Below are positions 4,810 through 59,078 of a stretch of 64,000 nucleotides of DNA, piece after piece (position 1 is the first letter of the stretch; the number at the start of each line of letters is the position of its first letter). Source of the DNA: Eubacteriales bacterium (GTDB lineage Bacteria > Bacillota > Clostridia > Oscillospirales > CAG-272); assembly GCA_045535095.1 (NCBI GenBank), contig JAZSKY010000042.1:23668-87667 (forward strand). The letters run 5' to 3'. The position numbers and the translations under genes are program-made. The notes under the pieces are model-generated. The model was not told the DNA's origin, ran no database searches, and saw nothing but the letters and a program-made list of their open reading frames with translations.

Positions 4810-5394
4810 ATGAAATACACGATAAATACCGGTCTTATCCCGGGTACGGTTCTCAAAAAAAGCGATTATAGCGGAATTTCCGGCAAGGACTTTCTTGATA
4901 AGATATATTTCTTCTCAGGCGGACTTATGCTGAGTCAGGTAAGGGAAGTATCGGGTGTTGACGGCTCGACCCTGCAAAACTGGGTCAAGCGCGGCTGGCT
5001 TGGAAATACGGTCAATAAGAAATACTCTAAGGAGCAGCTTGCGAGAATACTCATTATAAATATGATGAAAAGCAGTATGATGCTCGAAAAGATAGATTTC
5101 ATTCTGCACTATATAAACGGTGAGATCGAGGACGCAAGCGACGATATTATCTCCGAGTCCGAGCTTTACGGATATATCTGCGATATATGTGAAAGATACA
5201 CCGAGGCGGGACTTAGCGAGCCGAGTGAGCTTCGTAAAACGATCAGCGACTTCACCGACGAAAACTATACAGAGCCCTTTGAGGGCGCAAAAAAGAGACT
5301 TGACAGCGCGCTTGAAATAATCATCGCGGCATACTTTGCGTCAAGCGTTGCAAGCTTTGCAAACGAGCTTTTCGGCGGACTTGAAAAACGATGA
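4810..5394 (+). CDS. DUF1836-like putative DNA-binding protein
   Basis: The motif LSQVREVSGVDGSTLQNWVKRGWL...KKYSKEQLARILIINMMK resembles DUF1836/MerR-like HTH proteins. I moved the start to ATG 4810, which has an AAAGG RBS. ATG 4786 lies only about 8 nt from the predicted TSS. Confidence 0.65.
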   Translation: MKYTINTGLIPGTVLKKSDYSGISGKDFLDKIYFFSGGLMLSQVREVSGVDGSTLQNWVKRGWLGNTVNKKYSKEQLARILIINMMKSSMMLEKIDFILHYINGEIEDASDDIISESELYGYICDICERYTEAGLSEPSELRKTISDFTDENYTEPFEGAKKRLDSALEIIIAAYFASSVASFANELFGGLEKR

Positions 5395-7121
5395 GAGATA
5401 ATACCGTAAATGGCAAAAGCGGTGTTGTTTCAAACGGAAAGCTTATCGTTTATACAAACGGCCTAAAAATGTCCGAGATAAGAGGCTTTGGAAGCAGAGC
5501 GCTTCTCTCGGTGCTTCCCGTGCTGTCCGAGAGCTTTTATGACACCGAGGAAATATTTGATACAAACGCAAACAGCTATCACCAAAGCGTGTTTTCCAAA
5601 AGACATAAATTAACACAAAACTCTGAAAAGATAACAGAAATCTTCCAAAGCGCCCGTATTTGCGGCAAATTTTCGCAAGGCGGCGCTTTTGTTTGCGAGG
5701 TAGAGACGCTCAGTCCGATCGAGATAAATCTGGTCTCTCCGCCTTACGTGGAGACGGCGTTTTACCAAAATTACCGCATCGGATCAAGGGAAAAGAACGC
5801 CCTTCTTCTGAGAGAAGCGAGCGGCGAAAAGGGAATACTCGTCACCCTCTGCGGCGACGCCCGCTTTTCAGAAAACGGAGAGTCTGTGACACTCTTGCGC
5901 GGATTTTCAAGGATGATCTTCGCATTCGGCGAGGGCGAGGAGCGTATAAGATCGTCGCGTATCGCGATGCCTCCAAAATACTCGCCTGACGCGGTAAAAT
6001 ATACAAGCGACACACCTCTTTGCGACGAGCTTTTACATATTCTTCTCTCGCATCAGTCTGACTGCGGCGGAGTTTTGGCATCGAGAAACGAGACCCTGTT
6101 CAGAATGGATAGCGTGCGTATGATCGTGAACGCATTTCTGAAATACGGAAACACCGAAAACGCCCGCGCTCTGCTCGGATTTTTCTGCGAAAGATTTGCC
6201 TCTGACGGTGCGTTTTACCAGATCTATTCTGCCGAGACTCTTCGCGGAAAGCGTCATTTTTGCGACTCTTCTCTCGGCTGCGCAGGTCTTGCTTCGGCAA
6301 TGCTTGACTATGCCAAAATAAGTGGAGATAACTCACTTTTAAAGAAAAACATCAAGATGATGCGAAGTGCGCTCTACGCGCAGTTTGACGCACTCACAAA
6401 CGGAGTAATGCCGTTTTCGGGTGCGGAGACCGAGCTTTCAGACTCGCTCGTCAGTATAAGAAGCAGGGAATACGCATCGCTTGAAGCAACCCTCTCGTTT
6501 GCCGAGTCAGTTCTCGATTTTTGCGACTACTGTGAGGAAAATGGGATAAAGCTTCCACACGATAACGGAAGCGCCGCAAGACGCGGCAGAGCGATCCTTG
6601 ACGGCGTATCCGAGAATTTTATAAGAGACGGAGAGCCCTCTCTTTCCTCGATCGAAAGGAAAATAAGGCTTCCTCGCTTTTCGCACGGCGAGTGTGAGAT
6701 CTGCAGTAGAAAATTCTCACGTATATACTACGGAGAGCTTGAGCTTACAAGCGAAAATACGTACGCCTGTCCGCGATGCTACGCAGCCTTCACCCCCTCG
6801 GACGAAAGAGCGGATATTACGGAAGGCAACTCCTTTTCAACCCTTGCCGCCGCGATTCTGCTCTCAAGCGAGCGATTTGTAAAATCGTACGGAGCAAAAG
6901 AGTCGAAAAAGATGCTCGAGAGAGCGCTTCTCGTAAGGAAAAACGGAGGCGATATGACGAGCGTGCGCGCCGACTGTCTCCTTCTTCTTTCAGCAAGAAA
7001 ACTCGGACTTGATGCCGATTTTCTGGAAAGCGAAATAAAAAGTCAGGCTGAGTGCGGACGCCTTGCCGGAGAGTCGTTTGACACGAAAACCGTTGCGTCG
7101 CTCCTTCTTGCACTTGAATAA
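5391..7121 (+). CDS. Hypothetical 576-aa protein, possibly an (alpha/alpha)6 six-hairpin-like core with an inserted CxxC...CxxC zinc ribbon
   Basis: Long ORF whose ATG overlaps the upstream stop (ATGA). It contains the Cys pairs CEIC...CPRC. The fold assignment is only an impression from a helix-rich central region. Confidence 0.6.
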   Translation: MRDNTVNGKSGVVSNGKLIVYTNGLKMSEIRGFGSRALLSVLPVLSESFYDTEEIFDTNANSYHQSVFSKRHKLTQNSEKITEIFQSARICGKFSQGGAFVCEVETLSPIEINLVSPPYVETAFYQNYRIGSREKNALLLREASGEKGILVTLCGDARFSENGESVTLLRGFSRMIFAFGEGEERIRSSRIAMPPKYSPDAVKYTSDTPLCDELLHILLSHQSDCGGVLASRNETLFRMDSVRMIVNAFLKYGNTENARALLGFFCERFASDGAFYQIYSAETLRGKRHFCDSSLGCAGLASAMLDYAKISGDNSLLKKNIKMMRSALYAQFDALTNGVMPFSGAETELSDSLVSIRSREYASLEATLSFAESVLDFCDYCEENGIKLPHDNGSAARRGRAILDGVSENFIRDGEPSLSSIERKIRLPRFSHGECEICSRKFSRIYYGELELTSENTYACPRCYAAFTPSDERADITEGNSFSTLAAAILLSSERFVKSYGAKESKKMLERALLVRKNGGDMTSVRADCLLLLSARKLGLDADFLESEIKSQAECGRLAGESFDTKTVASLLLALE

Positions 7122-44727: not shown

Positions 44728-45468
44728 ATGAAAAAATATACCTTAAGATTTGATAAAAGTGCGGAGGACTCGGTTTTCGGTTGGAAAAACGAGTCCCTTC
44801 CGATTTCAAACAGCTATTTCGGTACGTGCATCTTCGGAGGCACAAATTACGAAAGACTCCAGATAACCGAGCCGACTCTCTGGACGGCAAACAGCGGATA
44901 TATCGAAAACCGATTTTGCAGCGGTCAGGAGACCTTTGGAGACCTTTTTATCAAATTCAGTCATAAGCACAAGATAAAAAACTATACGCGCGAGCTTTCG
45001 CTGAACTCTGCTGTCGCGAGCGTGAAATACACCTCGGGCGGCGTGGACTTTGAGAGAGAATATTTCTCAAGCTACCCCTCGCGCGTTACCGCAGTGCGCC
45101 TTTCAGCGTCCGAAAAGGGAGAGCTGAGCTTCACTCTGCGCCCCGAGATAGCAAACCTCCGAGATAGACTCACCGAGGGTAAAAATCCCGAAAGTTCAGG
45201 GAAATTCGGTAAGGTGTATGCAGAGGGCGATACCCTCGTTATGAGCGGCAGAGGGGAATATTACGGCATAGATTTCGAGGCAAGGATCCGAGTTGTCATT
45301 GACGGCGAGGGTGAGCTGACGGTAAAGAAAAGCTCTGTTTCGGTCAAAAACGCGAGCTGCGCTTATATCTATTTTACAGTCGGAACGAACTATATCCTCA
45401 GCGAAAAGACCTTTACCGCGCCCCGACTTGAAAAGCTGTCGGCAATCCGCATCCTCACGAAAAAGTGA
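44728..45468 (+). CDS. GH95-like glycosidase, N-terminal fragment (gene interrupted by a frameshift)
   Basis: LPISNSYFGTCIFGG...ERLQITEPTLWT matches the GH95 N-terminal domain. It stops at 45466-45468. Confidence 0.7.
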   Translation: MKKYTLRFDKSAEDSVFGWKNESLPISNSYFGTCIFGGTNYERLQITEPTLWTANSGYIENRFCSGQETFGDLFIKFSHKHKIKNYTRELSLNSAVASVKYTSGGVDFEREYFSSYPSRVTAVRLSASEKGELSFTLRPEIANLRDRLTEGKNPESSGKFGKVYAEGDTLVMSGRGEYYGIDFEARIRVVIDGEGELTVKKSSVSVKNASCAYIYFTVGTNYILSEKTFTAPRLEKLSAIRILTKK

Positions 45469-47114
45469 TGCAGATAATCGAAAATGCGACTAAAAAGGGC
45501 TACGAAAAGCTCAAAAAAGAGCATATTTCAGACTACTCAAAATACTTTACGCGTTTTTCCTTTGATATTGGCGGAAAAGCCGATAATCGCACGACTCCCG
45601 CACTTTTGGAGTCCTACCGAAGCGGCAAAAAAGAGCCTTATCTTGAGGAGCTTTTTATCCAGATGGGCAGATATATGATGATCGCCACCTCGCGTGACGG
45701 CACTCTGCCGAGTAGCGTTCAGGGTAAGTGGAACGCATACAAAATACCGCCGTGGACCTGCGGATACTGGTATAACATCAATCAGCAGATGAACTACTGG
45801 TTCGTCTTTGCGCTCGGTCTCGGCGACCTTTATAAGGCGTATGACGATTTCAACTCCGCTCGCTACGAAAAGGCAAAGATCAACGGAGACGCCTACATAA
45901 AGAACTTCTATCCCGAAAGATTTGAAGAGGGAGACGGCAAAAACGGTTGGCTCGTCGGTACGGCAAACAGTGCTTACGAGGTGTCGGGAGTGGGCAAAAA
46001 CAGCCACTCAGGACCCGGAACGAGCGGCTTTACCGTAATATCCGACGTTGATAAGGTGCGCTACACGCACAGTGAAAACGAGGCAAGGACCGTATATAAA
46101 GAGGTAAAAGAGAAAATAGACCTTCTCGATCCCGTCCTTGTCGGCGCTTCGGGTCAGGTCAAGGAGTTCCGCGAGGAAAACTATTACGGCGACCTTGGCG
46201 AGTTGGAGCATAGACACGTTTCGCAGCTTGTCGGACTTTATCCGGGAAGCGTTATAAATGACGAAACCCCCGCATGGCTTGACGCCGCGAGGGTGACTCT
46301 CAAAAATCGCGGATCGCGTAAGGGACCCGGCTTTGGAATTATGCACAGAGCGCTCCTCTGGGCAAGAGCCAAAGAGGGAGACATGGCATACAGACTTTTA
46401 AACCTTGAGATCTCAACGAGCATTTTCGATAATCTCTGGGGCTGTCATTACGATCCGATGCCCGTTGACCGCACAGACTCACACGCAAACTTTGCAATAG
46501 ACGCAAACTTCGGCGCGTGCGCTGCGCTTTCCGAGATGATAGTTCAGAGCGGGGACGGCACAGTCAAGATCCTTCCCGCACTTCCAAACGCTTGGAAAAA
46601 GGGAAAGGTAAAGCACCTTGCTGCGCGCGACGGATTTGATATTTCGCTTTCGTGGAAGGGCGGCAAGGCAGAGAAGATCGAGATGATCTCCACTCTCGGA
46701 GGACCTCTCACGATCAAATATTACAATATTTCAAAGGCGAGATTTGTTACCGATAATAAGGTAAAAGCACTTGATAAGGACACCGTACTTATCGAGACTT
46801 CAAAGGGCGATAAGATAATCGTCTTGGACATTCCGCTCTTTGAGATCACAAGAGACGCACACTCTCTTGCCGCGATCTGCTCGGGCGGAGAGACGATCTT
46901 AAAGTGGGAAAAATCTCCCGACGAGAATGTTACGTACAAGCTTTACAGAGCCTTCGACTCCTCTCCGACTTACACTCTTCTTTCAAAAACAGACTCCTTG
47001 GAGCTTGAGGACAAGGATCGCGGAGACAGACAAGCCACCTATAAGGTGATCGCGCTCTCGGGCGAAAAAGAGGAAAGCCACGGCATCACCGTCACAGTGC
47101 CAAGCAGAAAATAA
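45465..47114 (+). CDS. GH95-like glycosidase, catalytic and C-terminal fragment
   Basis: Contains EHISDYSKYF, PSSVQGKWN, YWYNINQQMNYW, HRHVSQLVGLYPG and FAIDANFGACAALSEM. This frame is open back to 45432. Confidence 0.7.
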   Translation: MMQIIENATKKGYEKLKKEHISDYSKYFTRFSFDIGGKADNRTTPALLESYRSGKKEPYLEELFIQMGRYMMIATSRDGTLPSSVQGKWNAYKIPPWTCGYWYNINQQMNYWFVFALGLGDLYKAYDDFNSARYEKAKINGDAYIKNFYPERFEEGDGKNGWLVGTANSAYEVSGVGKNSHSGPGTSGFTVISDVDKVRYTHSENEARTVYKEVKEKIDLLDPVLVGASGQVKEFREENYYGDLGELEHRHVSQLVGLYPGSVINDETPAWLDAARVTLKNRGSRKGPGFGIMHRALLWARAKEGDMAYRLLNLEISTSIFDNLWGCHYDPMPVDRTDSHANFAIDANFGACAALSEMIVQSGDGTVKILPALPNAWKKGKVKHLAARDGFDISLSWKGGKAEKIEMISTLGGPLTIKYYNISKARFVTDNKVKALDKDTVLIETSKGDKIIVLDIPLFEITRDAHSLAAICSGGETILKWEKSPDENVTYKLYRAFDSSPTYTLLSKTDSLELEDKDRGDRQATYKVIALSGEKEESHGITVTVPSRK

Positions 47115-47953: not shown

Positions 47954-48153
47954 GCCTTTGTATTACAAAGGCACATCGGGCAAAGCCCATACCCCTAAAG
48001 ATGCACGAGCGTGTCCAAAGGCTCCCTCCGGGAGGGAACTGTCGCCGTAGGCGACTGAGGGAGAGCGCGTTACTATAAAGTCAATCTAAACTCTAAGTCA
48101 CGCAGGCTCCTTCCGTCACGGCTACGCCGTGCCACCTCCCTCTCGGAGGGAGG
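47954..48153. repeat. Cluster of GC-rich REP-like hairpins
   Basis: Hairpins at 47954-47972, 47978-47988, 48022-48038, 48041-48055, 48117-48131 and 48135-48153, read directly from the sequence. Confidence 0.75.
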
Positions 48154-48168
48154 CTTTTCGTTAGCTCC

Positions 48169-48197
48169 ATTATAACACAAATCGGCAGAGAAAGCAA
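48169..48197 (-). promoter_or_regulatory. Predicted sigma-A promoter on the minus strand
   Basis: On the minus strand: TTGCTT (48197-48192), a 17-nt spacer, then an extended -10 TGtTATAAT (-10 at 48174-48169). Confidence 0.6.
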
Positions 48198-48198
48198 G

Positions 48199-48364
48199 AG
48201 TGATATTCCGACTTCGTCGGAGTGATATTATTGCTATCGCAATAGTGATATTGAAGCCTTACGGCTTCAGTGATATTTTATTCGCCAAAAACTCGCGTAG
48301 CGAATATCACTCGGCGTCAGCCGAATATCACTGCGTAGCAATACAACTCGCCAGAGGCGAATAA
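48199..48364. repeat. Motif/hairpin array: AGTGATATT x4 direct and x2 inverted, interleaved with unrelated short hairpins
   Basis: Direct copies at 48199, 48221, 48244 and 48269. Inverted copies at 48303 and 48324. Hairpins at 48208-48220, 48230-48243, 48253-48268 and 48312-48323. Confidence 0.85.
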
Positions 48365-48368
48365 AACT

Positions 48369-48412
48369 GCGCAACTTCCTTACGAGAAGTTGCGCAAAGG
48401 AGTTGTTTTTTT
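48369..48412 (-). terminator. gpmI terminator, also the right copy of the inverted repeat
   Basis: 10-bp stem gcgcaacttc / gaagttgcgc (48369-48395). On the minus strand it is followed by agttttatt. Confidence 0.75.
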
Positions 48413-58667: not shown

Positions 58668-59078
58668 ATAAAAACACCGAAGCTTTAGCGTGATGTCCTT
58701 AACGGACAAATCACGCATCGAGATAAATCCCTTGAGGGATTTTCGATATGTTGCTAACGCAACTCGATATGCCTGCGGCTCGATATGTTTGCTACGCAAA
58801 CGAGGGATTTATCTCATATCGAATTGAAGCGAAGCGACAATATATCGAGTTCGAGCAAAGCGAGAACATATCGAGTCAACGAAGTTGACATATCGACAGA
58901 AAGAAAAACAAGAGCAAGAATAGAAGGATTTCTCCTTTTACTCTTGCTCTTTCTGTCGTTATAAGGGTTTGGGATTAGCCCGTATTTGCGCTTGACCGGT
59001 CAAATGCGATGCTCGCACTTAACGGCGGTTTTCAATTTCTCCGATAAGAGAACCACCCATTTGCTTCGGTGCTTTTAT
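58668..59078. repeat. 411-bp structured non-coding element with a 16-nt terminal inverted repeat and an internal TCGATATG/CATATCGA motif-hairpin array
   Basis: The terminal inverted repeat is ataaaaacaccgaagc (58668-58683) against the reverse complement of 59063-59078, with 15/16 matches. The motif occurs x3 direct and x4 inverted. A long hairpin lies at 58894-58958. Confidence 0.8.

Follow-up and report, generated by a model that had tools for sequence, protein, structure and literature searches.

The array of short repeats and hairpins immediately downstream of gpmI in the 64,000-nt stretch of DNA analyzed here (hereafter the window) is, at the level of homology, a true copy of the Gut-1 RNA (RF01706) that falls just under the Rfam cut-off. 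It is a known kind of element, missed by annotation at the Rfam default threshold, and a member of a known orphan family rather than a new class. The Gut-1 motif as published is one half of a larger, two-armed element, and what we add here is this extended architecture, the assignment of the folded strand, and a link to S23p/four-helix-bundle genes and to heptad arrays. On balance, we think it probable that the array is an orphan Gut-1 element on the gpmI strand, with the layout, genomic context and inferred mechanism described below.

The motif AGTGATATT occurs on the plus strand at 48199, 48221, 48244 and 48269 and as its reverse complement at 48303 and 48324, just as the original prediction had reported. 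These six matches compare with 0.39 expected, and in the shuffle control which that prediction had named, six or more were reached in none of 100 dinucleotide shuffles. The repeats are 7–9 nt long with a spacing of 22–25 bp, and the sequence bears out the earlier description of the spacers as hairpins, which are short, perfect and built on palindromes of 9–18 nt. The previously noted complementarity of ttattcgcc (48278–48286) and ggcgaataa (48356–48364) also holds, forms an inverted repeat of 11 nt and covaries across homologues. On both strands the array folds far better than shuffled sequence (z = −7.2 and −7.9). A terminator scan places the intrinsic terminator of gpmI at 48367–48397 on the minus strand, just past the array as had been foreseen, and because its hairpin is part of the conserved layout, the element boundary reaches 48397; the extent of 48199–48364 given earlier is right for the array but too short for the element. 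The order of two plus four linkers proposed for the gpmI strand likewise needs extension: those copies are present, but the minus strand holds two further degenerate linkers, GUUUUAU (48361–48367) and GUUGUAU (48341–48347), and the grammar is 4 + 4 (four G-type, four A-type). By k-mer scan and by the family covariance model, the 64-kb window contains only two arrays of this kind. The present copy lies between gpmI and a lipoprotein-like gene, outside 23S rRNA, and is made up of the following parts, where X denotes the 5' strand shared by two mutually exclusive helices.

48199–48397, minus strand: full element
48367–48397, minus strand: hp0, the gpmI terminator hairpin (13 bp; terminator scan), whose U-tract UUUUAUU is the first linker
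48299–48369, minus strand: M-arm, the Gut-1 RNA motif proper (full-model match to Rfam RF01706), in the order L1 GUUUUAU, hp1 (UUCGCC/GGCGAG), L2 GUUGUAU, hp2, L3 GUGAUAU, hp3, L4 GUGAUAU
48356–48366, minus strand: X, UUUUAUUCGCC (covariation of both pairings)
48347–48352, minus strand: X', GGCGAG, the local partner of X, giving hp1 (helix-1 covariation)
48293–48303, minus strand: hp4, UCGC-UAC-GCGA (helix-4 covariation)
48287–48292, minus strand: GUUUUU spacer, 3' of hp4
48276–48286, minus strand: X'', GGCGAAUAAAA, the distal partner of X, giving P1, which closes the Gut-1 domain (covariation)
48200–48276, minus strand: A-arm, with four AUAUCAC linkers at 48270–48276, 48245–48251, 48222–48228 and 48200–48206 (sequence) and the hairpins hp5 (48252–48269), hp6 (48229–48244) and hp7 (48207–48221), all three covarying (helices 5–7)
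48169–48197, minus strand: promoter-like site TTGCTT – 17 nt – TGT-TATAAT (extended −10; found by eye), abutting the last linker

A peptide reading of the 54-codon ORF at 48200–48364 (plus strand) was rejected, as linker spacing varies and the reading frame is consequently not conserved.

At Rfam gathering thresholds, the window yields two tRNAs only and the array locus has no match. In E-value mode, RF01706 aligns over its full model length to 48299–48369 on the minus strand with 47.5 bits (E = 1e-8), which falls below the gathering threshold of 50 bits; many sister copies among the matches listed pass that threshold, with 57–76.5 bits. A weaker match on the plus strand (48186–48256, 34.5 bits) arises because the two arms are complementary. 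The Gut-1 consensus reads (G)UGAAAU – hairpin – GUGAAAU – hairpin – GUGAAAU – hairpin – GUGAAAU, precisely the grammar of the original prediction, and 48299–48369 on the minus strand conforms to it with four (G)UGAWAU linkers and three hairpins, the first being UCGCC...GGCGA. Both share the linkers, the three variable hairpins headed by UCGCC/GGCGA, and a setting in gut Clostridia; the organism belongs to an uncultured lineage of that kind, its gpmI reaching at best 78% identity with MAGs sampled from the guts of animals and humans. Two Gut-1 seed sequences, BAAZ01000095.1 and BAAZ01025322.1, carry the GUGAUAU variant and a preceding terminator as in the window, and their unannotated flanks hold the GGCGAAUAUA center followed by four AUAUCAC linkers with hairpin spacers. 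Our family model R1 scores the window copy at 190.6 bits, a value to be read with the inclusion of this copy in the R1 training set. Gut-1 was found in human-gut sequences and judged to be probably a non-coding RNA (Weinberg et al., 2010; PMC2864571). The published motif covers the first arm only, and neither the paper nor its searchable supplements mention a second arm, a helix that closes the domain, a location after terminators and tRNA genes, or a gene downstream (PMC2864571). Membership in a known repeat family takes away the novelty that the original prediction had in mind and leaves the element real.

A metagenome scan returned at least 120 loci, corresponding to at least about 60 distinct full copies with the same architecture; family figures given here (out of 60 and the like) refer to the copies among the matches listed. 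The original idea of a family of structured elements, with a shared grammar and differing motifs and stems, is well borne out by these at least about 60 homologues, by the covariation described below, and by the detection of the second window locus with R1. Among the copies listed, and on the strand equivalent to the window minus strand, the layout is constant at 171–181 nt plus hp0, the whole unit being about 200 nt long. The order is hp0, CAG, L1 (GUUWUAU), X (UUCGCC), a loop, X' (GGCGAG), L2, hp2, L3 (GUGAUAU), hp3, L4 (GUGAUAU), hp4, GUUnnn, X'' (GGCGAAUAWA), and then four AUAUCAC linkers with three hairpins. A strong hp0-like hairpin ends 1–5 nt before CAGUUWUAUUCGCC in about 56 of the 60 copies listed, and four A-linkers are present in 40 of the 60. 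Repeat spacing ranges from 16 to 34 nt across the family. The palindromes vary between copies and between slots and the linkers alone are conserved, with a UGC-UAC-GCA hairpin (TTGCTACGCA) recurring across the family; this 10-mer is also common to both window loci, as had been noted before. Between subfamilies, the linker pair changes in concert on both arms.

GUGAUGU / ACAUCAC: L018
UCGAUAU / AUAUCGA: second locus of the window
GUGAAAU / AUUUCAC: L210, L326, L329
GUGAAGC / CCUUCAC: L328
AUGAUAU / AUAUCAU: L331
AUAUCAUC / GAUGAUAU: L296

One contig (L210) carries a GUGAAAU-type element at 4950–5190 (plus strand) and a GUGAUAU-type element at 5768–5944 (minus strand), about 600 nt apart and in opposite orientation, so that several linker types coexist in one genome. 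Tandem or near-tandem duplicates are found at L196 (4242–4728), L238 (6819–7305) and L254 (395–1233), and duplicates with a 240-nt period occur in the Gut-1 seed. At L254 two nearly identical copies of the element are accompanied by differing small genes and terminator hairpins, a pattern that suggests gene conversion or a recent spread of the element core. The gpmI loci of 80 related species (551 kb) contain three copies, at differing positions and in differing orientations and one of them with a single arm, which points to fast turnover of the element. In one of these relatives (L018, 514–889, minus strand), gpmI is preceded at a distance of about 2.1 kb by an RNase P RNA gene, which has no connection with the element.

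To assess covariation, a covariance model was built from 22 copies and 76 same-strand matches were aligned to it; since the alignment is fitted to the model it favors structure, though the margin is large. Covariation supports all seven predicted hairpins and, in addition, the two mutually exclusive helices. Within the local hairpins, 92% of cells are paired, compared with 68% in shuffles and 31–47% with slid partners, and compensatory or both-side changes are seen in 35 of 36 pairs. Compensatory cells number 566 against 170 expected, a count reached in none of 500 shuffles, and an independent parse of the hairpins gives 732 Watson-Crick pairs of about 790. Helix 1 (X:X') is 98% paired (CG 68, UA 6), the double change from CG to UA being seen in 6 sequences, and helix 4 is 98.6% paired with GC/CG/UA exchanges. 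The competing helix P1 (X:X'') reaches 95% pairing and 32 compensatory cells, where 6.4 would be expected; its column 7/220 reads AU 49, UA 15 and CG 7. Where the variable position of P1 is U, A or C, the center carries the matching A, U or G with 0 exceptions in about 45 distinct copies listed. Both X:X' and X:X'' are thus maintained although they exclude each other, which suggests a conformational switch, or else folding in a set order.

Pairing between the arms themselves presents a different picture. In the canonical family, G-type and A-type linkers are 87.5% paired versus 87.3% in shuffles, with no compensatory support, because the linkers hardly vary and the variants that occur (all of single linkers) are uncompensated. 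A rung-by-rung pairing of the arms into a ladder of four-way junctions was accordingly set aside for the canonical family, and the concerted change of linkers between subfamilies leaves it as a possibility.

Several comparative features identify the gpmI (minus) strand as the strand predicted to fold. On this strand, 17 distinct A-arm hairpins have tandem G·A/A·G mismatches within them (37 GA/AG versus 3 UC), which on the opposite strand would become destabilizing U·C pairs. A tRNA gene on the same strand precedes 23 of the 60 copies listed by 35–43 nt and an opposite-strand tRNA precedes none; eight different tRNAs are involved among the copies listed, and one copy ends an rRNA operon. At L256, L242, L237 and L328/L330, the ribosome binding site of the following gene comes directly after the last linker, and a promoter would not fit in between. 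It is the tandem G·A mismatches, the tRNA polarity and the position of these binding sites together which assign the strand. Counts of G·U versus A·C (43 vs. 50, or 9 vs. 5 in a smaller count) are uninformative in this respect, loop composition is symmetric by construction since the arms are complementary, and ORF-based orientation statistics proved too noisy, so that tRNA positions were used instead. The copy at L018 is oriented opposite to both of its flanking genes.

The family is tied to a protein-coding gene. Its typical site is immediately behind the intrinsic terminator of a strongly expressed gene, frequently a tRNA gene, and, where the protein-coding gene is present, immediately ahead of the promoter or ribosome binding site of the latter. 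Among the copies listed, 17 distinct ones have a complete gene of 116–118 aa directly downstream on the same strand, and nine more show the gene start before the contig end, or a fragment, giving 26 of 52 assessable copies listed with the gene and 26 with none (8 more are unassessable). The three copies from unbiased loci (L018, L039 and L051) are all without it. The protein belongs to PF05635 (23S rRNA-intervening sequence protein) and TIGR02436 (four helix bundle protein), and its closest structure is PDB 2RLD, with five chains. The S23p member of X. campestris is a homopentamer, and it is from the S23p family that the ORF in 23S rRNA intervening sequences (IVS) comes; these sequences have inverted-repeat borders, are excised by RNase III and are regarded as selfish (PMC4990558). 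The Avd protein of diversity-generating retroelements (DGRs) resembles the four-helix-bundle family (PMC10053308). Near the Gut-1 loci examined we found no reverse transcriptase, DGR component, transposase or integrase, and the searchable literature yielded no publication that links Gut-1 or heptad repeats with PF05635. At sister loci the −35 element usually begins 2–7 nt past the last linker, as in the promoter of L194 (TTGACT-17-TATAAT), which precedes the gene; at L296 the arms are swapped relative to the gene. One locus, which looks Ruminococcus-like, combines tRNA-Arg, Gut-1, the four-helix-bundle gene and a CHAP-dockerin gene.

Homologues of this gene in other lineages are accompanied by comparable arrays. 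All three Bacteroidaceae homologues (L317, L320 and L323; gene at 1201–1578) have paired inverted arrays of 7-nt repeats and are inserted inside operons (araD-araA; aminotransferase-DAHP synthase). Their arrays consist of four to five contiguous heptads, (AATTGAC)n upstream of the gene and the complement downstream, and L323 (73% protein identity to the 2RLD query) has a different heptad pair in the same araD-araA context. Paired inverted arrays of 7-nt repeats also accompany 12 of 13 diverse homologues on viral contigs, and in both sets the repeat sequence is lineage-specific. On the viral contigs the arrays are either Gut-1-like with hairpin spacers, or contiguous with the two arms lying upstream behind a tRNA and terminator, or contiguous and flanking the gene. 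The sole exception of the 13 is L335 (around 701–1021), where AATTGAC-type heptads stand on both sides in direct orientation. A separate viral-contig scan for three copies of AATATCAC gave 109 loci, mostly in giant-virus MAGs, which were set aside as probable AT-rich tandem repeats.

The window copy is an orphan: the promoter-like site is kept and the four-helix-bundle gene is gone, with no tblastn match to the gene or a remnant of it in the window or at either locus. This site, at 48169–48197, scores below the −35 threshold of the scan tool; by eye it resembles the L194 layout, and it may function as a promoter. Downstream of it there is now a leader of about 250 nt, followed by a lipoprotein-like ORF of 211 aa. 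The apparent orthologous locus in a close relative (L205) has the same element, likewise without the gene. The scan gave no convincing plus-strand promoter in the window, and there is no target-site duplication around 48199–48397.

The second locus lies downstream of the transketolase-BNR genes and has every part of the layout with differing sequences.

58688–58897, plus strand: second element, with hp0 at 58688–58716, X (GAGAUAAAUCCC) at 58720–58731 and X' GGGAUU (sequence and R1)
58743, 58764 and 58780, plus strand: three UCGAUAU linkers (sequence)
58804–58815, plus strand: X'', GGGAUUUAUCUC (sequence)
58816, 58842, 58868 and 58890, plus strand: four AUAUCGA linkers (sequence)

R1 finds it at 58740–58897 on the plus strand with 28.6 bits (E = 2e-5), and it has no match to Gut-1 in Rfam. 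The hairpin in front of it has no U-tract and no terminator is called there. As judged from its sequence, this locus (58688–58897) is a divergent paralogue and likewise an orphan; between the two copies in the window, the grammar alone is common.

If the array is an orphan Gut-1 element on the gpmI strand, it would be transcribed by read-through of the gpmI terminator, since it starts right after that terminator and its transcription depends on read-through. Folding would then be co-transcriptional, with hp1 forming first and P1 later (a hp1/P1 switch). The 7-nt linkers could provide the binding register of a pentameric protein, or they could bring the two arms together, zipper-like, as an IVS-like processing stem. 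For the orphan copy only passive effects seem likely, namely a barrier between gpmI and the next unit together with protection of the RNA end. The number of repeats ranges from 3 to more than 7, and a match of “five repeats” to a pentamer is numerology.

Four other readings are possible and fit fewer observations than the orphan Gut-1 reading. One treats the array as a DNA operator or iteron-like array, in which 7–9 bp duplex sites bind a protein, possibly the four-helix bundle, that controls the abutting promoter, the hairpins being secondary. The last linker does lie 2–7 nt from the −35 element in most loci, the 22–25 bp spacing comes to about two helical turns, nearly all pairs in the hairpins are Watson-Crick without an excess of G·U, arm orientation can flip relative to the gene (L296), and the Bacteroidaceae repeats are contiguous and flank it. 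We nevertheless regard an operator as unlikely, since duplex DNA does not need spacers that are free in sequence yet always palindromic, with massive compensatory change; a spacing of 16–34 nt destroys helical phasing, both of the exclusive helices covary, the tandem G·A mismatches are strand-specific, and at some loci the element sits inside the gene leader. We would give about the same low standing to a selfish MITE-like or IVS-like mobile DNA, whose arms would be terminal inverted repeats, whose target would be the 3' flank of terminators and tRNAs, and of which the window copy would be a decayed example that serves no host function. The patchy occurrence (three copies, variously placed and oriented, across the 551 kb of orthologous gpmI sequence taken from 80 species), the tandem duplicates (L196, L238, L254 and the 240-nt period in the seed), the identity of the cargo family with that of the ORF in selfish 23S rRNA intervening sequences bordered by inverted repeats (PMC4990558), and the insertion of the Bacteroidaceae gene with its heptad arms inside operons all fit such an origin. 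It is opposed by the lack of a nearby transposase or integrase and of a target-site duplication at the window copy, by copies within one contig (L210, the window) that differ in linkers and hairpins, unlike the products of recent transposition, and by the retention of hairpin potential and of hp1/P1 across genomes of 70% identity, which argues for purifying selection on the fold.

It seems very improbable that the locus encodes two convergent small RNAs, one Gut-1-like unit per strand with antisense overlap. Rfam Gut-1 does match both strands (47.5 bits minus, 34.5 bits plus), the family model scores the reverse strand at 55–87 bits, the loops are U/C-rich on the GUGAUAU-reading strand of each arm, and a good many of the terminator hairpins are bidirectional; complementarity of the arms, however, by itself produces both the bias in the loops and the scores on the reverse strand. 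On the plus strand the tandem G·A pairs of the A-arm turn into destabilizing U·C, the window has no convincing promoter for that strand, and T-class hairpins, that of the window included, are without a plus-strand U-tract; the strict orientation that the element keeps toward tRNA genes and the gene downstream also speaks against a second transcript. Equally remote, in our estimation, is a back-up transcription barrier and nothing else, that is, stable hairpins that stop read-through from strong promoters (tRNA, rRNA, gpmI) with no partner protein. Such a role would suit the abutment to an intrinsic terminator (about 56 of the 60 copies listed), the strong enrichment after tRNA and rRNA operons, and the position between a terminator and the next promoter, but it leaves unexplained the invariant 7-nt linkers, the complementary arms, hp1/P1 and the recurrent four-helix-bundle gene, and the internal hairpins are all without a U-tract.

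Comparison with known systems places the orphan Gut-1 reading in context. REP/BIME sequences of enterobacteria are extragenic mosaics of palindromic units in alternating orientation, multicopy, and located after terminators or between co-directional genes. Gut-1 elements are likewise palindrome mosaics after terminators in multiple copies, but in REP/BIME the palindromes are conserved and the linkers vary, whereas in Gut-1 the linkers are conserved and the palindromes vary, with no association to a RAYT-type transposase. Assignment to REP/BIME was rejected because a shared conserved imperfect palindrome is absent, the palindromes differing between copies and slots. TRAP recognizes 11 GAG/UAG repeats, and type III toxin-antitoxin systems have ToxI repeats. 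By analogy, these short regular repeats adjoining the gene of an oligomeric protein may resemble the model proposed for the pentamer and its heptads, although Gut-1 repeats lie in two complementary arms with structured hairpin spacers, no toxin is evident, and the binding is putative. A MITE was discarded in view of the missing target-site duplication at 48199–48397 and of two window copies that share grammar only. A CRISPR array (repeats of at least 23 nt, non-palindromic spacers) does not fit repeats of 7–9 nt with palindromic spacers, and CRISPR-DR matches are at chance level (E about 0.5). Motif, spacing or context also appear not to suit DnaA boxes, Spo0A boxes, lambda-type arm sites, res sites, attC sites, single-strand origins or ToxI-type antitoxin repeats.

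Another close parallel is the 23S rRNA intervening sequence with an S23p ORF, as in Coxiella burnetii (PMC4990558). Both systems have a PF05635 protein (in the case of Gut-1, at sister loci), complementary arms that border or precede the gene, a location in or beside stable-RNA operons, and a tendency of the ORF to decay (PMC4990558). They differ in that the Gut-1 element lies outside 23S rRNA with both arms upstream rather than flanking, and in that the intervening sequence has a plain 28-bp stem in place of 7-nt repeats and hairpins (PMC4990558); the window copy, moreover, has no ORF. DGR Avd is a PF05635-like pentameric four-helix bundle that acts with a structured RNA (PMC10053308), but the Gut-1 loci examined lack a nearby reverse transcriptase as well as template and variable repeats.

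As an RNA motif, Gut-1 has counted as an orphan since 2010, and S23p/four-helix-bundle as an orphan protein family since the 1990s; the comparative data tie Gut-1, S23p/four-helix-bundle genes, and paired heptad arrays in other phyla to one another. A tentative extension, about which we are more doubtful than confident, is that Gut-1 and the paired heptad arrays are the cognate nucleic-acid partner of pentameric S23p/Avd-like proteins, with one 7-nt repeat per subunit and with the second arm and hp1/P1 as a protein-controlled switch. The whole might then be a small RNP or a selfish cassette, widespread and settling both within operons and where tRNA/rRNA operons end, and the window would hold two decayed relics of it. 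The testable questions that arise are whether five 7-nt repeats are bound by the pentamer, whether the arms form a processing stem, and whether the cassette is mobile.

Two further observations concern the neighborhood of the array. Another palindromic element, at 48010–48165, occupies the leader of the 211-aa gene; its arms are 21-nt inverted sequences (48017–48037 and 48137–48157; 90% complementary), with CTCCCTCC/GGAGGGAG hairpins. This segment of about 150 nt seems to be absent from L205 and therefore looks like a MITE-like insertion. A GH95 alpha-fucosidase-like gene appears to be split into two overlapping ORFs at 44728–45468 and 45465–47114 (plus strand), one with the N-terminal domain and the other with the catalytic and C-terminal domains, which could be due to a frameshift, a pseudogene or a sequencing error.
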